Part shown: positions 7,360 to 39,801 of the stretch, one piece after another | Numbering within the stretch: the stretch's first letter is position 1 | Layout: every line of letters begins with the position of its first letter | From: a virus | Length of the DNA: 40,973 bases | UHGV virus genome: UHGV-0256613 | Direction: 5' to 3' (one strand) | Translations under genes and position numbers: made by a program | The notes under the pieces: model-generated | Told to the model about the DNA's origin: nothing | Database searches by the model: none | What the model saw: the letters and a program-made list of their open reading frames with translations, nothing else

Positions 7360-7853
7360 TAAGCCCCCACGTAATTCCCTGAGAGATACCACTCTTCACC
7401 TGATGCAGCCCGCTTACTGCTTTTCCGTAAACACCGTTCACGACGTGCCAGAAAATTGTTTCGTTCTGGCTGGGAGTGGCTTTCACGGAATGCCGCCATC
7501 CACACCGTTGCAGCACGACGGTATAAGCCCCTGGACTCCAGTTCTTCCGCCTGGCGGGTCAGGCACAAAATCACCCGGGGATCGTTAGTGCCGACATAGA
7601 AATTGCGCACAGGTCTGGTTTCACGAACTGGTTGTGGTTCCGGCTCCTGCGCTCTCTCAGTCAGGCGTGGGAAATGTCTGCGTGTATCTCCTTCACAACG
7701 GTGAGCCACACGCCCACTCTGACGTAACTTGCTTGCTGACTGCAGAACGCGCTGCCGTGAGTAACCTGCAAAAGCATCCGCAATGTCTCCGGAAGTACAC
7801 CCCGGATGGGCTTCAATGAATTTCTGAACTTCATTCAAAAGACTCATGATCAC
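7359..7853 (-). CDS. hypothetical regulatory protein (possible PerC-like C-terminal region)
   Basis: 164 aa; helix-rich N-terminus; C-terminal LTRQAEELESRGLYRRAATVWMAAFRESH recalled as PerC-like; low certainty on family. Confidence 0.55.
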   Translation of the reverse strand: MIMSLLNEVQKFIEAHPGCTSGDIADAFAGYSRQRVLQSASKLRQSGRVAHRCEGDTRRHFPRLTERAQEPEPQPVRETRPVRNFYVGTNDPRVILCLTRQAEELESRGLYRRAATVWMAAFRESHSQPERNNFLARRERCLRKSSKRAASGEEWYLSGNYVGA

Positions 7854-8668
7854 CCCCTGAATCCTGCCGGGATCTGGCTGTAGTCCACGTTGTCGTAACT
7901 GGCTTTGAAGTACGGGTCCTCGCGTCTGGCTGCAGATACCGCAGGAACTTCCCAGAATTCTTCGAAATGACGATCCGGACCAAAGAACGTGACAGCCTGT
8001 TTCACAAATTGTGTGCCGCTGTTACCCATCGCAGATACCCAGCCCGCGTAGCGTTTCACACCTTCCAGCATGGTTTCGGGGTTTACTCCCTCATTCAAAC
8101 GGGCTTTCCAGGCTTTGAAGGCTGCAGATTTTGAATTGCCACCAGCACGTTTGGGATATGCCAGCCATGCCTGCTCAAACTCCGGAGAGTATTCCGGTCG
8201 GTTTGAACGAACTCGCACGGACTCATCAACTGATGCACCAACAGCTATTGGTTCATTGACTGGTTCTTTGACTGGTTCAAAAGAGTGACTGGTTCTGGGT
8301 GAATCTCCTGCACTACCCCCTGGTGCAACTCCTGCACTACCTGGTGAATTTGCTGCACCAGATAGTGAATTATTTGCACTACCCCCTAGTGAATCTCCTG
8401 CACCATCCAGATGAAGGAGATAGATATTACTTGAGTTACCTTTTTCACCTTTCCGGGTGACTTTTTTTACCAGCCCGGACTCACAAAGGGCCGCAATATG
8501 ATTCATCACAGAACGTTTGCTAATTTCGCACTGGTCAGCAATATGCTGGTAGCTGGGCCAGCACTCACCCTGATCGCTGGCATTATCAGCCAGCTTGATC
8601 AGAACCAGTTTTCGCAATGGATTACCCACTCGAATTTTCATCGCTTTAACCATCAGCTCCATACTCAT
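7850..8668 (-). CDS. replication initiator (O-like, N-terminal HTH) with iterons inside the coding sequence
   Basis: 272 aa; N-terminal HTH (PSYQHIADQCEISKRSVMNHIAALCESGLVKK); low-complexity Gly/Ser/Ala linker encoded by the tandem repeats; lambda-O-like arrangement. Confidence 0.7.
   Translation of the reverse strand: MSMELMVKAMKIRVGNPLRKLVLIKLADNASDQGECWPSYQHIADQCEISKRSVMNHIAALCESGLVKKVTRKGEKGNSSNIYLLHLDGAGDSLGGSANNSLSGAANSPGSAGVAPGGSAGDSPRTSHSFEPVKEPVNEPIAVGASVDESVRVRSNRPEYSPEFEQAWLAYPKRAGGNSKSAAFKAWKARLNEGVNPETMLEGVKRYAGWVSAMGNSGTQFVKQAVTFFGPDRHFEEFWEVPAVSAARREDPYFKASYDNVDYSQIPAGFRG
8299..8410. repeat. five tandem imperfect 21-24 bp direct repeats (candidate ori iterons) followed by an AT-rich stretch
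   Basis: Units GTGAATCTCCTGCACTACCCCCTG / GTGCAACTCCTGCACTACCTG / GTGAATTTGCTGCACCAGATA / GTGAATTATTTGCACTACCCCCTA / GTGAATCTCCTGCACCATCCAG, inside the replication gene. Confidence 0.55.
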
Positions 8669-8901
8669 GCTGCACCTCCGAGATGCTTCATGTTTTTTCC
8701 GGAGCGAAAGGCTATAAGCGGCATACTGACGCGGTAATTACGGCCCAGCGGTTCACAAATCACCTTCTGGCATTCACGGTCAACCAGGCTAACACGTAGA
8801 ACATGCCCTGCAGGCGTGGTGTACCACTGCCCAACTGTAGGAATTGATGTTTTTTTACGCTGAAGCAAACGGCAAATATTGAGGATCAACGGATTAAGCA
8901 T
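8665..8901 (-). CDS. hypothetical small protein
   Basis: 78-aa ORF overlapping both neighbours by a few nt (coupled arrangement). Confidence 0.4.
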   Translation of the reverse strand: MLNPLILNICRLLQRKKTSIPTVGQWYTTPAGHVLRVSLVDRECQKVICEPLGRNYRVSMPLIAFRSGKNMKHLGGAA

Positions 8902-9730
8902 GACGATGCCCTCCGCTGATATTCAGGAGACGGTGAATATGAAAATTAGCCTTATCCGCCAGACGAATACGTTCAGCCTGCAAGTTAAGAAGGGTTTCTA
9001 CCAAAACCTGATGCGCCTGCGGATCCGAAAGAGTTACCTTGCGCAGAGCACGTAGTGCAGTTGTTACATAACTGAGTTTATGTAAGTCTTCATCATTCAG
9101 ACGAGAGAGGGCTGGGACAGTAGCCATGATGGCAGCCTCCGTATGCAATGGATAACTTCCACCACCGGAAACGCCAATTTCGCTGGTGGTGAACTGAGCA
9201 GGGTTGGCGTAACCGGCGCATACGGAAACCGGCGCACCTTTCGGTGCCCCCACCCAGCCCACCATAATTTGGGTATAGCTGAGTTGTAGCAACAAAAAAG
9301 ACGCTAACGCGCCAATTGTCGCCGTATGCAATTCCAGGACGCCAATCCCGACACCCACTTTATAAGGTGCCTGAACAGTGTAACGTCCCGGAATGGCAGA
9401 ATCAATGTGCTGGTGGTCCTTCACACTCAACAAAATCACGCCTGAATTTCCACAAAGGACTAAAGCACTCATGCGGGTAGTCTTTGCGAAGATAGATAAC
9501 GCGCTGTGTTTCTGGCTCCCAACGAATAACATGGACATAAAGCCCTCTTCCGTCACGAAACCAGCGGTTAAGTTCCTGCACAACTCGCCCCCCACAGTCA
9601 GGTAAAGTTCTCTGTGGTTACTTACAGCCAGGTGATTTGGTAATCTGCATTCATGCCGTAACAACAGGTGTTCAGCGACGCTGACCACCAGCTGTTGCGA
9701 CAAACGGTTATTTGCCGTTAAACTGTTCAT
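8894..9730 (-). CDS. hypothetical protein (start uncertain; alternative ATG at 9265)
   Basis: 278-aa ORF whose ATG overlaps the CII-like stop (ATGA); the N-terminal 155 aa are not convincingly protein-like, and an internal ATG at 9265 gives MVGWVGAPKGAP..., matching the 28-codon relic at 38016-38098. Confidence 0.4.
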   Translation of the reverse strand: MNSLTANNRLSQQLVVSVAEHLLLRHECRLPNHLAVSNHRELYLTVGGELCRNLTAGFVTEEGFMSMLFVGSQKHSALSIFAKTTRMSALVLCGNSGVILLSVKDHQHIDSAIPGRYTVQAPYKVGVGIGVLELHTATIGALASFLLLQLSYTQIMVGWVGAPKGAPVSVCAGYANPAQFTTSEIGVSGGGSYPLHTEAAIMATVPALSRLNDEDLHKLSYVTTALRALRKVTLSDPQAHQVLVETLLNLQAERIRLADKANFHIHRLLNISGGHRHA

Positions 9731-13871: not shown

Positions 13872-14224
13872 ATATTTTCGAAATGGAAGGGTTTCTTCGC
13901 GGGAAATGTGTACCGCGAGATCTGAAAGTGAACGAAACAAATGCTGAGTACCTGGTACGTAAATTCGACGCGCTTGAAGCTAAATGTGCGGCACTGGAAA
14001 ACAAAATAATACCAGTGTCAGCTGAACTGCCACCAGCAAATGAAAGTGTTCTGTTATTTGATGCTAATGGAGAAGGCTGGCTGATTGGCTGGCGTTCTCT
14101 CTGGTACACCTGGGGACAAAAAGAAACCGGAGAATGGCAGTGGACATTTCAGGTCGGGGACCTTGAAAACGTCAATATCACTCACTGGGCAGTAATGCCA
14201 AAAGCACCGGAGGCTGGAGCATAA
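13862..14224 (+). CDS. DUF551-like C-terminal domain protein (YfdS-like)
   Basis: 120 aa; C-terminal W-rich motif ending ITHWAVMPKAPE. Confidence 0.6.
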   Translation: MRMNIFEMEGFLRGKCVPRDLKVNETNAEYLVRKFDALEAKCAALENKIIPVSAELPPANESVLLFDANGEGWLIGWRSLWYTWGQKETGEWQWTFQVGDLENVNITHWAVMPKAPEAGA

Positions 14225-15003
14225 TGACCACATTTACCAATAAAGAACTGATTAAAGAAATCAAAGAACGAATCAGCAGCCTAGAGGTTCGAGACGATAT
14301 TGAGCGCCGTGCTTATGAAATTGCTCTGGCATCGCTAGAAGAGGAGCCGGTGGCATGGCTGCATTCAGAAAATGGCTTAGGTATTCCGGCAATAACGAGG
14401 AGTAAAAACATTGCTGACAGTTGGTTATCAAAGGGCTGGTATGTTCAGCCGCTATATATAGCCAAGCCAGTGCCGGTAGTGCCAGATGCTCGTCCGTCTT
14501 TAAATAATGGCATAGTCGGTTTTGATGAAGGCTGGAACGCCTGCCGCGCCGCCATGCTTCATGGTGCCAAACCTGTAAACCAAACTTACAAGTCACCACA
14601 CACGCTGTTTGAACAAGTTGCTGACCTCTACGAAATGCAATTTGATGACGGTCGCACTTGTGCCTTTCACACTGATGCGCAAAAGGCTGCGCAATGGCTT
14701 CAGGTGTGCGACGGAAACAGGGTTCAGGAATACGTTAAGCTGGAACGGCTGCAGAACGCGCTGTCTGGCAACTCTCCGGTAAGTCCGGGTGGTTGGATAA
14801 GCTGTAGTGAGCGAATGCCGAACGATAAACAGTATGTTTGGTGTTGGGGTAAGTCTTACGGCTGGACTGAGTGCGATACCTTCGAAGGGTATTACGATTG
14901 GTCGAGAAACAAATGGTGGGCAGTTACTGACGATGGGGAAGAACCGGCATCGAAAGTAACCCACTGGATGCCGCTACCAGAACCGCCGCAGGAGGTGAAG
15001 TGA
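14224..15003 (+). CDS. hypothetical protein with C-terminal DUF551-like domain
   Basis: 259 aa; C-terminus ...WCWGKSYGWTECDTFEGYYDW...VTHWMPLPEPP. Confidence 0.65.
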   Translation: MTTFTNKELIKEIKERISSLEVRDDIERRAYEIALASLEEEPVAWLHSENGLGIPAITRSKNIADSWLSKGWYVQPLYIAKPVPVVPDARPSLNNGIVGFDEGWNACRAAMLHGAKPVNQTYKSPHTLFEQVADLYEMQFDDGRTCAFHTDAQKAAQWLQVCDGNRVQEYVKLERLQNALSGNSPVSPGGWISCSERMPNDKQYVWCWGKSYGWTECDTFEGYYDWSRNKWWAVTDDGEEPASKVTHWMPLPEPPQEVK

Positions 15004-18496: not shown

Positions 18497-18573
18497 TGGC
18501 GTGGCATGCAGGATTCGAACCTGCGACCAACCGCTTAGAAGGCGGTTGCTCTGTCCAACTGAGCTAATGCCAC
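18497..18573 (-). tRNA. tRNA-Arg (anticodon UCU), phage-encoded
   Basis: Minus-strand GTGGCATTAGCTCAGTTGGACAGAGCAACCGCCTTCTAAGCGGTTGGTCGCAGGTTCGAATCCTGCATGCCACGCCA folds as a cloverleaf: 7-bp acceptor, D-arm GCTC/GAGC, anticodon loop CUUCUAA, T-loop TTCGAAT, encoded CCA; acceptor stem differs from recalled host argU. Confidence 0.9.
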
Positions 18574-33637: not shown

Positions 33638-34249
33638 TTAGCATGATTCAGGGGAAACCCCAATATTAAATATGAGTGACTCCCCTGAATCAGCATAATA
33701 ATGTAATATTATTGACTTACGTTGTTTTCTTGCTTCGTAGAATAAACGCTCCTGCGGCGATAATTTGTGAAAACTGCCGGATGCACAATATATGTTTTTT
33801 AACTTTTCGCTGGTTGCTTTTATTGTATCTTCTGAGATGTATTTTAGGTATTTATCCGTATAGATGTTGCTACTATAAGAAATTAATGTTTTGCTGTTGT
33901 TGTGATGTGTTGTATTTTTATCGTTGAAGTCTGTATTTTTATTTACTGTCATTAGGTTTTTAATGATTACATGTAATACAATAGTCTCCCCATCATCAAT
34001 TCCATATTTGATGTCATAGTCAGTATATTTATTTGTTATACCGCTTCCTGATAGCGGCACTATGTACTCTGAGAAAAATGAGTTTGCCGCGTGACCATCA
34101 AGAGCAATAGCATTTTTTTTGTGGTAAAAATAAAACAATATTGAGAGAGTCAAAATAATAGCGACGCCTAATGCAACCTTTAATATAGATATGGTTTTCA
34201 AAATATCGCTCCTTGTTGTAACATACATCAGTAATGTGGCGTTTTTCAA
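33638..34249 (-). CDS. membrane-anchored protein (moron), unknown function; probable TTG start at 34201
   Basis: AT-rich; AAGGAG SD 6 nt before TTG at 34201 giving MKTISILKVALGVAIILTLSILFYFYHKK...; Asn/Tyr/Lys-rich body; 3' end overlaps a 12-bp-arm inverted repeat. Confidence 0.6.
   Translation of the reverse strand: MKNATLLMYVTTRSDILKTISILKVALGVAIILTLSILFYFYHKKNAIALDGHAANSFFSEYIVPLSGSGITNKYTDYDIKYGIDDGETIVLHVIIKNLMTVNKNTDFNDKNTTHHNNSKTLISYSSNIYTDKYLKYISEDTIKATSEKLKNIYCASGSFHKLSPQERLFYEARKQRKSIILHYYADSGESLIFNIGVSPESC
33644..33692. repeat. 12-bp perfect inverted repeat (TGATTCAGGGGA ... TCCCCTGAATCA) with 25-nt spacer
   Basis: Lies between convergent genes (core protein stop 33626; moron stop 33638). 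Confidence 0.6.
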
Positions 34250-34291
34250 TTGTATTAAAGACGTGTAATATGTACACGCCTTTTGTTCTTC

Positions 34292-34723
34292 CTATTCAGG
34301 TATTTCAATTCCAAAACCATCTGCATCCCATGAGTTTTCACAGATGATGTAACCTAGTTCATTGAGCTTATTAAATGTTTTTTCAAAGATGATCTGGTAA
34401 TCATTATCTGCAAGTGATTCCAGTTCAAGGTCATTAAGGTTTATATAAAAACTTGTATGTCCAAGTGTTATTTTCTTATTAATTTCATTAAAGGTTCTTT
34501 TGAAAATAATATTTGATATTTCATGCCGTGCATTGTTTGCAATAATTTTTGCTTCATAAGCAGAAATTACGTCATCTTCATGAATATCTTTCAGAAAGCT
34601 GGTGTCAAGACGTTGTACTATTTCAGCGTTCATTGATCGCTTATTGGCTTTTGCAGAAATTTCTATTTTTTCTTTTACTTCAACGGGAAGTCTGATCCTT
34701 AGTTGTGGATCTTCTCTGCTCAT
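34292..34723 (-). CDS. Mnt-like ribbon-helix-helix repressor with C-terminal extension
   Basis: N-terminus DPQLRIRLPVEVKEKIEISAKANKRSMNAEIVQRLDTSF matches the Arc/Mnt RHH pattern; divergent from the arc-ant operon as in P22 immI. ORF track extends to 34753 (TTG). Confidence 0.65.
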   Translation of the reverse strand: MSREDPQLRIRLPVEVKEKIEISAKANKRSMNAEIVQRLDTSFLKDIHEDDVISAYEAKIIANNARHEISNIIFKRTFNEINKKITLGHTSFYINLNDLELESLADNDYQIIFEKTFNKLNELGYIICENSWDADGFGIEIPE

Positions 34724-34814
34724 GTTCTTCACCAAATATTGAGTTACTTGCAATGATTGAAGTATGCCTCACCGTGTGCTTGACATCAATGACGCACGGT
34801 GTGACAATTGTTTT

Positions 34815-34829
34815 GCCCCACCGTGGGGC
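34815..34829. promoter_or_regulatory. Mnt-operator-like palindrome overlapping the arc/ant promoter
   Basis: GCCCCAC-c-GTGGGGC, 15-29 nt upstream of the arc ATG; core CCACCGTGG resembles P22 Omnt core CCACGGTGG (recalled). Confidence 0.5.
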
Positions 34830-34843
34830 TAAGGAGATATGAA

Positions 34844-35011
34844 ATGCAAAAAGCAAAAGAGATGTGTCAACGACGAGTTCGTTTTCCGGACGATGTGAAG
34901 TTAGCTATTGAAAGAAATGGCGAAAAAGAATGCCGAAAGTTCAATACAGAGATTATCTATCAGCTGAGGAAAGTGTATGGACTCACTGGTGAGAAGAATA
35001 GCGTGGCATAA
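34844..35011 (+). CDS. arc: Arc-like ribbon-helix-helix repressor
   Basis: 55 aa from ATG with AAGGAG SD; RVRFPDDVKLAIERNGEKECRKFNTEIIYQL parallels Arc. ORF track starts at TTG 34808. Confidence 0.7.
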   Translation: MQKAKEMCQRRVRFPDDVKLAIERNGEKECRKFNTEIIYQLRKVYGLTGEKNSVA

Positions 35012-35083
35012 AACAGCGAAGCCCAACGGTGGCCAGACCGTCAGGGCTTCAGTATCGTAAAACTACGTATAGGAATTAACGAC

Positions 35084-36022
35084 ATGACGAGTATAGCAAC
35101 AGCGGTATCTACTATCAACGTGCCATTCCACGGCGCAGAGCTTTATGTTGTCAATCACAACGGTGAACCGTATACCCCAATGAAACCTATCGTTGAGGGA
35201 ATGGGGCTAGACTGGAAATCTCAACATAAGAAGATTTCTCAACGCTTCTCGAAGGGTATGGTGGAAATCACCATACCTTCTGCCGGTGGGGTGCAAGCCA
35301 TGATTTGTATGGCTTTACGAAAATTGGCAGCTTGGTTGAACAGCATCAGTCCAAACAAAGTACGCCCTGAAATCCGCGACAAGGTAATCCAGTATCAGGA
35401 AGAGTGTGACGATGTGCTCTACGATTACTGGACTAAAGGCCATGTAGTTAACCCACGCAAAGCTAAAAAGGCGTTGCCGGGTAAAATCACCACTGAACAG
35501 CAGGAAGCCATTAAACAACTCGTCATGAGTCGCGGTCAGTCTCTGCCAAAAGAAAAACAGGCTAAGGCGATGATCACCATGTGGTCGTCACTGAAATCTC
35601 ATTTTGGCTGTTCGTACAAAGAAATTGATGAAGATCAATTCGCCGAAGCGTTGTCTCTTGTTGCTCGGGTTCCGCTTGAAGGGGAGTATCTCCCTGCTGG
35701 ATCTGCATCAGAGAATGATGAAGTGGCAGTCAAGATGTTAGATGCGCTTCGTGAGGCAATTAAAACACAGACAAAATGTTATGGTTATCCGCTGAAGCCC
35801 GGCTACCGCAGTTTGATTCACTCGCCGTCTGGTGTTCTCGGCCTGACGGAGAACTCACTGCTGATGAATCTGCTGAACCAGTTACAGGAAGACGGGCACG
35901 ACGTATCGGGTGCGGCGGCGGAACTGACCACCATGTTCTGCTACATCGTCGGTGTGAGTAAATGCCTGCGTGATATCCAGACCCACGCGGAGTACATCAA
36001 CGACAAGGCAGGGTTCTTCTGA
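35084..36022 (+). CDS. ant: antirepressor Ant (AntA-type N-terminal domain, shared C-terminal domain)
   Basis: 312 aa; N-terminus ...MKPIVEGMGLDWKSQHKKIS...; C-terminal ~85 aa nearly identical to the C-terminus of the 37274-37966 protein. Confidence 0.8.
   Translation: MTSIATAVSTINVPFHGAELYVVNHNGEPYTPMKPIVEGMGLDWKSQHKKISQRFSKGMVEITIPSAGGVQAMICMALRKLAAWLNSISPNKVRPEIRDKVIQYQEECDDVLYDYWTKGHVVNPRKAKKALPGKITTEQQEAIKQLVMSRGQSLPKEKQAKAMITMWSSLKSHFGCSYKEIDEDQFAEALSLVARVPLEGEYLPAGSASENDEVAVKMLDALREAIKTQTKCYGYPLKPGYRSLIHSPSGVLGLTENSLLMNLLNQLQEDGHDVSGAAAELTTMFCYIVGVSKCLRDIQTHAEYINDKAGFF
35780..36022. repeat. left arm of ~245-bp inverted repeat (antirepressor C-terminal coding region)
   Basis: Reverse complement is near-identical by eye to 37274-37520 (a handful of mismatches). 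Confidence 0.8.
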
Positions 36023-37273: not shown

Positions 37274-37520
37274 TCAGAAGAACCCTGCTTTGTCGTTGAT
37301 GTACTCCGCGTGCGTCTGGATATCACGCAGGCATTTGCTCACACCGACGATGTAGCAGAACATGGTGGTCAACTCCGCCGCCGCGCCCGATACGTCGTGC
37401 CCGTCTTCCTGTAACTGGTTTAGCAGATTCATCAGCAGTGAGTTCTCCGTCAGGCCGAGAACACCAGACGGCGAATGAATCAGGCTGCGGTAGCCGGGCT
37501 TCAGTGGGGCGCTGTAGGTT
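37274..37520. repeat. right arm of ~245-bp inverted repeat (antirepressor C-terminal coding region)
   Basis: Near-identical to reverse complement of 35780-36022. Confidence 0.8.
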
Positions 37521-37966
37521 TTGTTCTCTACCTTCATTGCCTGCATCACTGCTGATGCTGTGGCGTTGGCTACCTGGTCGGCAACCATCTTTATGCGTTC
37601 TTCCTGCGGGAGCGAGTTTTTAATGTAACTTCCGGTGCGGCGGATCTGAGGAAGAACCTCACCTGTAACCCATTCAAGAAATCTGAATGCTCTCGTTCCC
37701 TCAGTCATTGCCTCTTTGCAACGCAGAATAAGGATGTAGAGACCTGATTCTGAAACGATGGATAGTTCTTGTATTCCACCAGGGGTCTGTATTGAATACA
37801 GCCCCTTTTTGTTCCAGCCTTTTTTATCAAGTTTTCTCGCTTGTGTAACATCAATATTCAAAGCATTGCACACATCTTTGGTGACAAACCAAGGTTCTCC
37901 GTCAATCATGAACATACGGATCTGGCAGGATGACTCAAAGGAAAAGATGGAAGGTTTGGTATTCAT
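37274..37966 (-). CDS. antirepressor paralog (Bro-N-type N-terminal domain, shared Ant C-terminal domain)
   Basis: N-terminus MNTKPSIFSFESSCQIRMFMIDGEPWFVTKDVCNALNI... (Bro-N-like); C-terminal ~85 aa shared with Ant at 35084-36022. ORF track extends to 38011. Confidence 0.75.
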   Translation of the reverse strand: MNTKPSIFSFESSCQIRMFMIDGEPWFVTKDVCNALNIDVTQARKLDKKGWNKKGLYSIQTPGGIQELSIVSESGLYILILRCKEAMTEGTRAFRFLEWVTGEVLPQIRRTGSYIKNSLPQEERIKMVADQVANATASAVMQAMKVENKTYSAPLKPGYRSLIHSPSGVLGLTENSLLMNLLNQLQEDGHDVSGAAAELTTMFCYIVGVSKCLRDIQTHAEYINDKAGFF

Positions 37967-38015
37967 AGCGATCACCTTTGTAGTTAGGTTAATCACCACC
38001 GCTGAGACCAATCAG

Positions 38016-38098
38016 ATGGTGGTGAACTGTGCAGAGTTGGTCTTACCGGCTACAAAGGAACCCGGCGCACCTTTCGGTGCCCCCACACAGCCCACCAT
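38016..38098. repeat. diverged duplicate of 9184-9266 (leader/N-terminal module with GNRA hairpin)
   Basis: ggtggtgaactg..cccggcgcacctttcggtgcccccac..cagcccaccata shared by both loci; here encodes only a 28-codon relic (MVGCVGAPKGAPGSFVAGKTNSAQFTTI*) upstream of the Bro-N antirepressor. Confidence 0.7.
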
Positions 38099-38233
38099 AG
38101 AATAGGTGCGCTTTACACATAAAAAAACCGCTTATGCGGCATATGTGCCTCTGTAGTAATCCGGGAGACCAATCCCGGCACTGGATTTTGCCAGTGCCCG
38201 ATTACTATGGCACAAGAGGAGTGCAATGTAAAT

Positions 38234-39326: not shown

Positions 39327-39350
39327 GGCCGCTTTCGCGGCCTTTTCTTT
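39327..39350 (+). terminator. rho-independent terminator after the two-gene module
   Basis: GGCCGC-tttc-GCGGCC followed by TTTTCTTT; same hairpin as 36074-36097. Confidence 0.6.
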
Positions 39351-39606
39351 ATGTGGTTTGTTTTCGTAATTGTTCGGCACAATAGTCGAGATGTGTTTGC
39401 AGATCCTGCATAGACATCTGTGAGCTGGTGACGTAGTTAATCAGTGCAGTCAGTTCGGCAAGTGGGCCATCGACATTAAATCCATCCTTATCGAGATCCC
39501 GGAGTAATTTCATCAAGTGCGATCCCTCCACCAGTGACCTGACGCCTCCCGGCGTGTGAATCCTTTCGGTAAATCCGTCTTCCAGTGGATAGTGATACTG
39601 CTGCAT
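39349..39606 (-). CDS. small protein homologous to the antirepressor C-terminal domain only
   Basis: 85 aa from ATG with GGAGAAG SD; PGGVRSLVEGSHLMKLLRDLDKDGFNVDGPLAELTALINYVTSSQMSMQDLQTHLDYCAEQL parallels the Ant C-terminus. ORF track extends to 39729. Confidence 0.5.
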   Translation of the reverse strand: MQQYHYPLEDGFTERIHTPGGVRSLVEGSHLMKLLRDLDKDGFNVDGPLAELTALINYVTSSQMSMQDLQTHLDYCAEQLRKQTT

Positions 39607-39682
39607 CTTATCTTCTCCATGCAATAACTGTATGTTTATACAGTAACAAATAATTTGTTTGCTATCCAGCACGTTTTGCAAA

Positions 39683-39697
39683 TTACCCGAAAGGTAA
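39683..39697. promoter_or_regulatory. TTACC-N5-GGTAA palindrome (copy 4 of 4; 7-bp arms ATTACC..GGTAAT)
   Basis: aATTACCcgaaaGGTAATa between the divergent small Ant-C gene and the tailspike gene. Confidence 0.4.
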
Positions 39698-39801
39698 TAT
39701 CTATTGGTATTTATAGTCTTTTTATCCATATATGGTTTTTCAGGTAATAGAATAACCAGATATGCGGCGCAACGGGTGCTGCGACTATCTGGAGATTTAA
39801 C

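Follow-up and report, generated by a model that had tools for sequence, protein, structure and literature searches.

The window analysed here is a 40,973-nt stretch of DNA from the virus genome UHGV-0256613. Two loci in the window carry a related module, and both copies lie on the minus strand as judged with Rfam covariance models. The functional units comprise promoter, isrK, C4, target sites, SD sequence and AUG, and extend over approximately 9405..9125 (cassette A) and 38232..37964 (cassette B), somewhat wider than the 9184-9350 and 38016-38178 of the initial annotation. The features in and around cassette A are as follows.

8894..9730, minus strand: open reading frame (ORF) of 278 codons; a composite artefact, not a gene
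9581..9402, minus strand: DUF4222 gene (PF13973, E 9.5e-14)
9377..9405, minus strand: promoter-like site A; -35 TTGATT (9405..9400), 17-nt spacer, -10 TACACT (9382..9377)
9370, minus strand: +1 of isrK-A
9294..9370, minus strand: IsrK-A (P1 a1/b1 leader RNA); RF01394, 56.7 bits against a gathering score of 50
9345..9339, minus strand: a1 of IsrK-A, UUGGCGU, in the loop of hairpin 2
9329..9322, minus strand: b1 of IsrK-A, GCAUACGG, in the linker (bipartite site search)
9313..9300 (stem) and U-tract to 9294, minus strand: intrinsic terminator of IsrK-A (terminator scan)
9182..9269, minus strand: C4-A antisense RNA; RF01695, 80.7 bits, E 2e-14, gathering score 45
9246..9233, minus strand: hairpin 1 of C4-A with a GAAA loop, within the outer stem
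9225..9218, minus strand: b' of C4-A, CCGUAUGC, in the loop of hairpin 2
9210..9204, minus strand: a' of C4-A, ACGCCAA, in the 3' bulge
9125..9177, minus strand: target leader A; a2 UUGGCGU (9177..9171) and b2 GCAUACGG (9146..9139)
9140..9136 and 9127..9125, minus strand: SD (GGAGG), into which b2 runs, and AUG of leader A
8894..9127, minus strand: orf77, 77 amino acids; real gene, helical-hairpin protein in the AF2 model
8901..8665, minus strand: orf38; its start is overlapped by the orf77 stop
8668..7850, minus strand: O-like replication gene; its start is overlapped by orf38

Cassette B has the corresponding parts.

38204..38232, minus strand: promoter B; -35 TTTACA, 17-nt spacer, TG-extended -10 CATAGT; 9/12 with TG in the scan
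38121..38197, minus strand: IsrK-B; RF01394, 74.7 bits
38172..38166, minus strand: a1 of IsrK-B, UUGGUCU (site search)
38155..38148, minus strand: b1 of IsrK-B, UACAGAGG, one G·U relative to b2
38140..38127 (stem) plus U7, minus strand: terminator of IsrK-B (terminator scan)
38015..38102, minus strand: C4-B antisense RNA; RF01695, 78.6 bits, MFE -43.6 kcal/mol
38098..38012, minus strand: 28-codon ORF beginning MVGCVGAPKGAP, in C4-B (from the ORF list)
38080..38067, minus strand: hairpin 1 of C4-B with a GAAA loop
38058..38051, minus strand: b' of C4-B, CCUUUGUA, in the loop of hairpin 2
38043..38037, minus strand: a' of C4-B, AGACCAA, in the bulge
37964..38011, minus strand: target leader B; a2 UUGGUCU (38011..38005) and b2 UACAAAGG (37982..37975)
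37966..37964, minus strand: AUG of leader B; its SD (AAGGUGA) is overlapped by b2
37274..37966, minus strand: Bro-N antirepressor, 230 amino acids; Pfam Bro-N E 1.9e-13, phrog_130 'anti-repressor Ant' E 4e-51

When the cassette A region was compared with the whole window by BLASTN, 9354..9184 was aligned with 38181..38017 over 173 nt (74% identity, E 8.9e-24). This was the single non-self match, and no further match within the window was better than E 2. Thus, the similarity between the two loci is beyond chance. The identity was highest in C4 (83%) and lower in isrK (69%), the leader (58%) and the spacer (56%). A database search found the module in 342 phage records, and among 5426 complete E. 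coli genomes 1400 matched the A type and 449 the B type, so the module is not limited to one genome. The two loci had been described as diverged duplicates; the similarity stands, the duplication does not. Phage Ayreon matches copy A at 99.7-99.8% identity, phage EC.W1-9 matches copy B at 100%, and the two halves of the window match different phage lineages, joined near 14.8 kb. On these matches, the two copies appear to come from two joined phage lineages and not from duplication. At least 80% of the window was covered in 3 of the 5426 complete E. coli genomes, in pieces. The cassette edges coincide with mosaic junctions.

The C4 model was matched full-length and above its gathering threshold of 45 bits at both loci, and the isrK model (threshold, 50 bits) was also matched at both. 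The c4-a1b1 model (RF03163), which co-matches isrK in P1 and Gifsy-1, is not listed for the window; in P4 it scores 44.1 bits, just below its gathering score of 46.7. By MFE folding, C4 has a similar structure in both copies, namely a long outer stem around two hairpins, and the fold of C4-A (-45.0 kcal/mol) has the family architecture. By homology to the P1 annotation, mature C4-A would extend over approximately 9264..9185. The GCACC-GAAA-GGUGC hairpin noticed initially is hairpin 1 of C4 at both loci, and the shared motif 'ccaatcccg' corresponds to isrK hairpin 2. In 61 sequences, compensatory double changes were observed in 16 of the 23 C4 consensus pairs. Each of the five hairpin-1 pairs had 5-36 double changes (four of the five, 19-36). 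The stem of hairpin 2 was fixed by the search pattern and is therefore uninformative for covariation. Hairpin 1 of isrK covaries. The IsrK architecture is the same at both loci: two 5' hairpins, a1 in the second loop, a b1 linker, a terminator and its own promoter. Features related to RNase P are visible in C4 as a conserved acceptor-like stem and a 3' CCACC.

Each cassette holds the a/b signature in three places and no more: isrK and the leader carry it directly, and C4 carries its complement. The bipartite signature of cassette A was found three times in the window against 0.00 expected by chance, and that of cassette B three times against 0.01. Co-variation of these sites was analysed in 92 unique cassettes from viral contigs, which represent 37 specificity types. 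The complement of the loop lies 47-57 nt past a conserved CCAAC and abuts the SD and AUG. The cognate loop target was exact in 83% of cassettes and had at most one mismatch in 96%, as compared with 0.04% and 2.6%, respectively, for non-cognate pairs. The upstream copy of the loop target was exact in 67% (at most one mismatch in 89%) and the bulge sites were exact in 96% and 98%. Furthermore, an overlap between b2 and the SD, with constant spacing to the AUG, was seen in 96% of cassettes. Cassettes A and B differ exactly at the specificity sites, loop b' and bulge a', and each carries the matching changes in its own three sites. Because a' and b' differ between the cassettes and the targets match accordingly, cassettes A and B should be orthogonal, without cross-reaction. 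Additional targets of C4-A or C4-B were not found in the window, where single octamers occurred at chance level, and there were no bipartite sites in the window outside the cassettes. The calculated energy of the b':b2 duplex is -21.6 kcal/mol for cassette A and -15.4 kcal/mol for cassette B.

A consensus promoter scan did not call a promoter over cassette A: promoter-like site A has 8 of 12 consensus matches, is under the scan threshold and was recovered by cassette comparison alone. In this comparison (the 59 distinct upstream sequences listed, from the 79 cassettes, out of 90, in which isrK hairpin 2 could serve as the anchor), the -35 and -10 columns lie at a fixed distance from isrK. The position of promoter B is conserved across cassettes, and the +1 of isrK-B is 38197. 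The promoter of cassette A is weak and inside the PR operon, and transcription may largely come from PR.

The repeated module is two P1-immI-type IsrK-C4 cassettes and not a protein start. This kind of element is already known, and the finding is real but ordinary. A regulatory RNA hairpin had been among the initial suggestions; a regulatory RNA is the right reading, but it is not a hairpin alone, being a full C4 gene with an IsrK/a1b1 leader and a2/b2 sites. An identical layout (a1, b1, c4, a2, b2, icd, ant) is annotated in the P1 record, with the description 'repression of icd ant translation'. Like the cassettes, P1/P7 immI belongs to the same Rfam family (P1, 68.8 bits), has the order promoter, a1/b1, C4, a2/b2 and gene, and carries a' in the 3' bulge, b' in the hairpin-2 loop and b2 next to the SD. 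As in the case of P1 icd, a small ORF comes first behind cassette A, and it runs over the start of the next gene. As in the heteroimmunity of P1 and P7, specificity comes from variation of the a/b sequences. There are also differences. The cassettes lie in lambdoid and epsilon15-like phage backbones, whereas P1 is a plasmid prophage; the hairpin 1 loop is GAAA in the window cassettes and UUCG in P1, and the a/b sequences differ. Cassette B would act directly on the Bro-N antirepressor, without an intervening icd-like ORF, and cassette A on orf77, which is unlike Icd, and then on replication genes, not ant.

We consider it highly probable that both loci are control cassettes of the P1 immI / P4 / Gifsy-1 type, each complete in itself and based on IsrK and the C4 antisense RNA. 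This reading is based on family membership, covariation of the structures, complementarity and co-variation of the sites, promoters, terminators and the absence of coding constraint; from these we infer processing, direction of regulation and biological role. Transcription would begin at isrK from a constitutive-looking sigma-70 promoter, and the isrK terminator would stop most transcripts, giving a 77-nt IsrK RNA in which a hairpin loop exposes a1 and a single-stranded linker exposes b1. C4 would be carried on read-through transcripts, where the hairpin 2 loop presents b' and the 3' bulge presents a'. In P1, C4 is excised by RNase P. The a' and b' sequences are complementary to a2 and b2 in the downstream leader, and because b2 runs into the SD, their pairing should block ribosome binding, either in trans (processed C4) or in cis (read-through RNA). 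The genes behind would be silenced too, via overlapping stop and start codons and polarity. IsrK, with the same a/b sequences, would be a competing decoy that relieves the block. Cassette A would gate orf77, then orf38 and then the O-like replication gene in the early-right operon, and cassette B would gate the Bro-N antirepressor. Thus, orf77 and the Bro-N antirepressor are the putative genes under the control of cassettes A and B, respectively. Phage TL-2011b has gp46, annotated as a BRO-N domain-containing protein, in the corresponding position behind C4. In the predicted read-through fold of cassette A, b':b2 and a':a2 are paired and GGAGG is buried (z -4.9). In that of cassette B, a' and b' pair with a1 and b1, not with a2 and b2, and the ant SD is left open. 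Because these MFE folds give opposite answers, MFE folding is not decisive for the pairing partner in cis.

Relief of the block by an IsrK decoy has experimental precedent in Gifsy-1, where IsrK supplied in trans raises anrP translation more than 100-fold (Hershko-Shalev et al. 2016, PMC4825925). Hfq binding of IsrK and trans-activation of the downstream antirepressor come from the Gifsy-1 experiments only (PMC4825925). As in the window, isrK of Gifsy-1 adjoins C4, and the antirepressor gene anrP follows. The a' sequence of Gifsy-1, ACGCCAA, is identical to that of cassette A, and the published compensatory pairs G28-C162 and G31-C159 (PMC4825925) fall in a1 and a'. In contrast, b' differs (GGUGAU type in Gifsy-1), and the Gifsy-1 cassette is located after Q and not in the early operon.

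A possible but rather unlikely alternative is that C4 acts as in P4 and N15, where pairing causes premature transcription termination, here at the isrK terminator or downstream, and not a block of translation. P4 CI RNA and seqA match the same Rfam families (CI with C4, 74.9 bits; the seqA region with isrK, 60.8 bits), and the literature equates C4 with CI and IsrK with seqA. Moreover, a1/b1 and C4 are separated by an intrinsic terminator in each cassette, and cassette A is upstream of replication functions, like CI in P4. The homologous RNA of P4 works by premature transcription termination (PMC4825925, discussion; Barquist et al. 2013). Barquist et al. (2013) named the 'IsrK-C4 immunity system', noted copies in lambdoid prophages and cited the N15 CA RNA as structurally similar; according to the literature alone, the likeness to N15 is that a small processed RNA controls an antirepressor operon. 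However, the overlap of b2 with the SD, seen in both window cassettes as in nearly all others compared, differs from P4 and points to a translational block, being the hallmark of the block annotated for P1. A terminator scan did not find a terminator-like site between C4 and the regulated AUG in either cassette. Because Rho-dependent polarity is added to the block in P1, translational block and termination are not mutually exclusive.

It is less probable, and in our view unlikely, that the function of the module lies in translation of a leader ORF (the MVGxVGAPKGAP peptide), to which the downstream gene would be coupled, with RNA pairing gating only the ORF's own ribosome binding site. A translated leader peptide had been suggested initially. 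The idea has a precedent, because the ORF corresponds to Gifsy-1 orf45 (STnc1160), which starts at the same conserved AUG (A107) on C4. An early stop in orf45 lowers IsrK-dependent anrP translation, a Western blot of SPA-tagged orf45 is among the methods of that study, and in its authors' interpretation control depends on orf45 (C4 region) being translated in coupling with anrP (PMC4825925). In cassette A, the ORF reads through in frame into orf77, and such in-frame fusion is the commonest arrangement (56 of 92 cassettes, many of them close relatives). We drew no conclusion on selection for the fusion, since the types are phylogenetically dependent. Against this reading, conservation of the ORF is lacking: several types have a stop after 4-14 codons (P1 after 14 codons), length changes in the loop and bulge shift the frame, and ATGG is absent in 6 cassettes. 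No SD precedes its AUG, which is sequestered in the covarying outer stem. Whereas orf45 overlaps the anrP start (AUGA), the 28-codon ORF of cassette B, which is indeed present within C4-B, stops 45 nt short of the ant AUG and thus offers no overlap for coupling. Coding constraint was not seen in the window: the isrK/C4 stretch has no codon periodicity (128/128/131 substitutions at positions 1/2/3), synonymous changes number 40 versus 207 non-synonymous, and stops occur in 7 variants. The account based on orf45 translation is a different reading of the same element.

We regard it as highly improbable that the module is mainly a recombination linker, marking module junctions in mosaic phages but regulating nothing itself. 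In favour of this, translations of the window and mEp460 agree at 100% as far as the isrK start; the two sequences then diverge within the cassette, and past it they share only the first residues of the next gene. The downstream gene differs among relatives (Rha, Ant or orf77), and a and b specificities occur in differing combinations. A passive sequence, however, would not show compensatory stem changes, and neither the three-way co-variation of loop, bulge and targets nor the conserved placement of promoter and terminator would be expected of it. The mosaic-boundary linker proposed initially is thus retained as a by-product, with cassette edges at mosaic junctions, and not as the main role.

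The weakest reading, that ORF 8894-9730 is a genuine 278-amino-acid 'immunity region' or 'Ash family' protein and the repeat its domain PF10554, can be dismissed with near certainty, although Pfam PF10554 (Phage_ASH) scores 59.7 bits on residues 117-209 (cut-off, 26), SfV, Ayreon and RefSeq list the ORF as a CDS, and a stop-free run of 278 codons is unusual. The ORF first crosses the DUF4222 gene in another frame, continues across isrK and C4, and enters orf77 in frame. The gene that its N-terminal third overlies out of frame is under real coding constraint: at 9402-9581, 39 of 66 substitutions fall at position 3 in the DUF4222 frame (33 synonymous, 22 non-synonymous), whereas in the long-ORF frame substitutions fall at position 2 (5 synonymous, 50 non-synonymous). 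The stretch matched by PF10554 showed no coding signature of purifying selection, the frames are broken in many cassettes, and the frame is closed in cassette B. The bare translation of 9382..9104 gave 62.7 bits with PF10554. The P4 match of PF10554 is the obsolete 'cI gene product' ORF, which overlies the CI RNA gene, and not epsilon; true P4 epsilon belongs to another family, PF25738. PF10554 has nevertheless served as a marker for P4 epsilon, and cassette-A-like sequence has been reported as an 'Ash domain' in Rha and antirepressor proteins of Stx phages. From these results, PF10554 appears to model translated RNA. The start of the 8894-9730 gene had been called ambiguous. The ATG at 9265 is an internal in-frame Met of this ORF, and substitution patterns settle the matter: the long ORF is, as judged from them, an artefact, with AUG 9127 as the start of the real gene.

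The gene starting at this AUG, orf77, had 7/1/13 substitutions at codon positions 1/2/3 (13 synonymous, 8 non-synonymous); orf38 and orf77 both show codon periodicity, unlike the RNA stretch. AF2 modelled orf77 as a confident helical hairpin (pLDDT 84). It had no match in Pfam or NCBIfam, and in PHROGs only families built on artefactual long ORFs were found. A search of 5.8 billion proteins gave 7 near-identical clusters, which are called 'ash family protein' only because of an N-terminal extension. With Foldseek, no PDB structure matched the model with E < 0.5, and no similarity to P1 Icd was found. Relatives carry Rha or Ant at the orf77 position. We also considered orf77 as a recognisable antirepressor; no such match was obtained in the Pfam, NCBIfam, protein or structure searches.

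These results bear on annotation. The 278-codon CDS, which databases label 'immunity region' or 'ash family protein' (PF10554), should become two ncRNA genes and a 77-amino-acid gene. Cassette-A-like sequence is present in about a quarter of complete E. coli genomes and is annotated as an Ash or immunity CDS in the listed records. The a'/b' sequences define specificity groups of immunity and anti-immunity, and these groups could predict cross-regulation of antirepressors among co-resident or superinfecting phages, Stx phages included. The understanding of how such cassettes work is unchanged. Taking the observations together, we tentatively raise the possibility, with the odds against it, that cassette A is an RNA gate on replication genes and that orf45 and the Ash class are misread C4 genes. 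The gate would lie in the PR operon of SfV/Ayreon-type lambdoid phages, between the cII-like and replication genes, and overlapping stop and start codons of orf77 and orf38 would tie expression of the O-like gene to a hypervariable a'/b' 'barcode'. If so, a second, RNA-based immunity layer like that of P4 would exist inside a lambdoid phage, with IsrK as an anti-antisense decoy. As a corollary, C4 RNA genes read as protein would account for Gifsy-1 'orf45' and for all of the Pfam/RefSeq 'Ash family protein' class.

The window also contains a P22-type sar antisense RNA (RF00262, 35082..35015). Like the C4 cassettes, sar of P22 immI is an antisense RNA that controls an antirepressor (ant). Unlike C4, it belongs to an unrelated RNA family, is cis-antisense over the ant start and has no bipartite loop-target system.

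The region of cassette A was compared with the whole window by BLASTN. One non-self match was found (9354..9184 with 38181..38017, 173 nt, 74% identity, E 8.9e-24), and no further copy was present in the whole window, where the remaining matches had E values of 2 or more. A global alignment, with its long invariant core, agrees with BLASTN that the two loci are related. The identity is 83% in an 88-nt core, 69% in the 77 nt upstream and 56-58% in the spacer and downstream leader, and the weaker "ccaatcccg" similarity is also present. The repeat described in the initial annotation is real, and its interpretation as a linker, leader peptide or regulatory RNA hairpin was right in part. When all Rfam models were scanned on the window at gathering thresholds (45 bits for C4 and 50 bits for isrK), the following matches were obtained.

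9370..9294, minus strand: isrK (RF01394), copy A, 56.7 bits
9269..9182, minus strand: C4 antisense RNA (RF01695), copy A, 80.7 bits
38197..38121, minus strand: isrK (RF01394), copy B, 74.7 bits
38102..38015, minus strand: C4 antisense RNA (RF01695), copy B, 78.6 bits

Both copies are standard members of a described and experimentally studied family, and their kind is already known: both motifs were listed by Weinberg et al. 2010, and the term "IsrK-C4 immunity system" was used for lambdoid prophages by Barquist et al. 2013. Each cassette consists of a promoter, IsrK, C4, a target leader and a gene, which is orf77 (77 amino acids) in cassette A and the Bro-N antirepressor (Ant) in cassette B. 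The predicted folds of C4-A (-45.0 kcal/mol) and C4-B (-43.6 kcal/mol) have the family shape, two hairpins within a long outer stem. The GCACC-GAAA-GGUGC hairpin, which had been noticed as a GNRA hairpin in both copies, corresponds to hairpin 1 of C4. Among 61 aligned sequences including P1 and Gifsy-1, pairing is kept through changes on both sides in 16 of the 23 C4 consensus pairs. The five hairpin-1 pairs have 5 to 36 two-sided changes each (19 to 36 in four of them), and covariation is also seen in isrK hairpin 1.

In the P1 sequence, the a' segment of C4 is the 3' bulge and the b' segment is the hairpin 2 loop; the window copies have the same layout. Their complements, a1/b1 in IsrK and a2/b2 in the downstream leader, were located as follows.

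9345..9339, minus strand: a1 of cassette A, UUGGCGU, in the loop of isrK hairpin 2
9329..9322, minus strand: b1 of cassette A, GCAUACGG
9225..9218, minus strand: b' of cassette A, CCGUAUGC
9210..9204, minus strand: a' of cassette A, ACGCCAA
9177..9171, minus strand: a2 of cassette A
9146..9139, minus strand: b2 of cassette A, continuing into GGAGG, with AUG at 9127
Cassette B, a sites: UUGGUCU / AGACCAA
Cassette B, b sites: UACA(A/G)AGG / CCUUUGUA
37982..37975, minus strand: b2 of cassette B, overlapping AAGGUGA, with AUG at 37966

The bipartite a/b signature occurs exactly three times per cassette, compared with 0.00-0.01 expected by chance, and no further bipartite site of either cassette was found elsewhere in the window. 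The cognate loop-target duplexes are stable, with computed energies of -21.6 (A) and -15.4 (B) kcal/mol. Between the cassettes, b' differs at 5 of 8 positions and a' at 2 of 7, and the targets change in step. Because a' and b' differ and each has matching targets, the two cassettes should act without cross-reaction, judging from these sequences. An intrinsic terminator is located at the 3' end of both isrK copies. The promoter scan found a TG-extended promoter in cassette B, which ends 7 nt 5' of the isrK +1. A weaker candidate (TTGATT-17-TACACT) lies at the same place in cassette A; it was not picked up by the promoter scan, and its -35/-10 columns are kept at this distance from isrK in dozens of distinct cassettes.

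In the GenBank record of P1, promoters, a1, b1, c4, a2, b2, icd and ant are given in the same layout, and a2/b2 are annotated as "repression of icd ant translation". This P1-type mode is the best-supported reading of the cassettes. Whether acting in trans after processing or still within a read-through RNA, C4 would pair through a'/b' with a2/b2, and this pairing would hide the Shine-Dalgarno sequence. IsrK, which bears the same a/b sequences, would compete for C4. The experiments on Gifsy-1 (L130) fit this mode. In Gifsy-1, isrK (34316..34240) is followed by the Rfam C4 match (34214..34131) and anrP. The published "orf45" coincides with this C4 match; it reads MVGRMGEPKGSP..., has 45 codons and ends on the anrP start, and the published position A107 is the conserved AUG of this type of ORF. 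The compensatory, experimentally verified IsrK:orf45 pairs G28-C162 and G31-C159 (PMC4825925) map within a1 and a' and thus represent the a1:a' interaction of P1 type, and the C4 outer stem has G114 on one strand and C175 on the other. These positions suggest a decoy role for IsrK towards C4 in Gifsy-1. IsrK in trans increases anrP translation more than 100-fold, and the authors themselves point to the P4 seqA/CI parallel and the processed RNA STnc1160 (PMC4825925). P4-like termination may act in addition to the P1-type mode, and so may translation of the orf45-like ORF. The predicted read-through RNAs fold unusually stably (z -4.9 for A and -5.3 for B), and the predicted cis partner of a'/b' differs: it is a2/b2 in A, with GGAGG buried, and a1/b1 in B.

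The ATG at 9265 is in frame in ORF 8894-9730, and a 28-codon ORF (38098..38012) exists just 5' of the Bro-N gene, as had been stated. The conserved AUG with which the "MVGxVGAPKGAP" ORF begins lies at the 5' edge of the C4 outer stem, and this ORF is the homologue of Gifsy-1 orf45. As a conserved protein it was rejected: it stops after 4-14 codons in several cassette types (14 codons in the P1 equivalent), and in others loop/bulge length changes cause frameshifts or the ATGG is absent. Substitutions in isrK, C4 and the leader fall almost equally on codon positions 1/2/3 of the 278-codon ORF 8894-9730 (128/128/131; 40 synonymous and 207 non-synonymous; stops in 7 variants). The corresponding counts are 7/1/13 in orf77 and 34/32/79 in orf38. 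These statistics cleanly part coding from non-coding stretches. At 9402-9581 (minus strand), substitutions fall on the third codon position of a different frame, which encodes a DUF4222 protein (PF13973, E 9.5e-14); 33 are synonymous and 22 non-synonymous in this frame, compared with 5 and 50 in the long-ORF frame. Because the RNA stretch is non-coding and 9402-9581 codes in another frame, ORF 8894-9730 is a composite artefact and not a single gene. The real gene after cassette A is orf77 (9127..8894, minus strand), and the start regarded as ambiguous in the initial annotation is settled at 9127. Stop and start overlap both between orf77 and orf38 and between orf38 and the O-like replication gene, and each of the three has its own GGAGG. 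The 3' end of the DUF4222 gene overlaps the -35 element of isrK-A. A mild coding signal, with 16 synonymous and 23 non-synonymous changes, is present in the ~50 codons at the beginning of the long ORF (9730..9582, minus strand), and 9582-9730 may be a separate short gene.

The PF10554 (Phage_ASH) match (62.7 bits on 9382..9104, minus strand) coincides exactly with the translated isrK, C4 and leader sequence. In RefSeq, the E. coli copies bear the name "ash family protein", and the annotation of SfV orf37 and of its homologue in Ayreon is an "immunity region" CDS. In P4 (L132 8168-8584), PF10554 matches residues 22-85 of the obsolete "cI gene product (AA 1-137)" ORF. Because this stretch overlies the Rfam C4 match, which is the CI RNA, and the true epsilon protein is PF25738, PF10554 seems to represent the IsrK-C4 RNA locus in conceptual translation. 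PF10554 has served in papers as an epsilon marker, and "Rha/Ash domain" proteins have been reported in papers on Stx phages. The most useful by-products are annotation fixes, which concern the two ncRNA pairs, the start of orf77 (9127) and the artefact of PF10554 and the "ash family protein".

When viral contigs were scanned with an exact pattern of the hairpin-2/bulge frame, at least 120 stretches were obtained; among the matches listed were 92 unique complete cassettes with 37 loop/bulge combinations. In these 92 cassettes, the loop complement is located 47-57 nt 3' of the conserved CCAAC, directly before GGAG and AUG (exact in 83%, at most one mismatch in 96%), compared with 0.04% and 2.6% for non-cognate loop/target pairs. 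The upstream copy of the target matches exactly in 67% of the listed cassettes and with at most one mismatch in 89%, and the mismatches inspected are G·U-compatible, as in cassette B (b1 UACAGAGG, b2 UACAAAGG). For the two bulge sites, exact matches were seen in 96% and 98% of them. This is a large-scale confirmation that the specificity loops co-vary with their three target copies. In viral contigs (loci L007-L126, e.g. L019, L067, L074), the a and b specificities reassort: among the matches listed, loop GTATGCG is combined with bulge TACG or AGTT, and both GATAACG and TTTGTAG are combined with TACG or AAGA. Each swap needs a coordinated change at three interleaved sites.

The two cassettes did not arise by local duplication within this genome: phage Ayreon matches the region of cassette A at 99.7-99.8% identity, and cassette B is 100% identical to phage EC.W1-9. 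Cassette A is flanked by the cII-like YmfL gene and the replication gene, and the slot between these two is also filled in SfV, 2H10, Stx2c phages, Stx1 phages, cdtI, mEp460 and PhiR40_1. mEp460 is identical to the window 5' of isrK, with a different cassette specificity and Rha in place of orf77; in Stx1_14744, Ant replaces orf77. Cassette B belongs to the epsilon15/phiV10/TL-2011b-type late region, where the same Bro-N gene follows. At ~14.78 kb, inside a DUF551 gene, the window passes from a lambdoid early region to a TL-2011b-like region; at least 80% of a query for this junction was covered in only 3 of 5426 complete E. coli genomes, and in pieces. The window is a hybrid of a lambdoid early part (like PhiR40_1 and the GN4554 prophage) and a TL-2011b/phiV10-like terminase/structural part (junction ~14775-15003; ORF 14224-15003, plus strand), and therefore PL-side genes read into terminase.

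A P22-type immI unit (34292-36022) is located 2 kb from cassette B.

34292-34753, minus strand: Arc-like repressor
35082..35015, minus strand: sar antisense RNA, 45.2 bits (threshold 43)
35084-36022, plus strand: P22_AR_N antirepressor

With cassettes A and B, the window therefore contains three RNA-/repressor-gated anti-immunity units. About 1.4 kb upstream of cassette B, a 126-amino acid ORF (39349-39729, minus strand) is a Bro-N-less paralogue of the Bro-N antirepressor, with 40% identity (E 2e-15) between its C-terminal half and the C-terminal domain of that protein. A tRNA-Arg(UCU) (18497-18573, minus strand) lies between the terminase and portal genes; because TL-2011b has the same tRNA at the same place, it is phage-encoded and not an attachment site.
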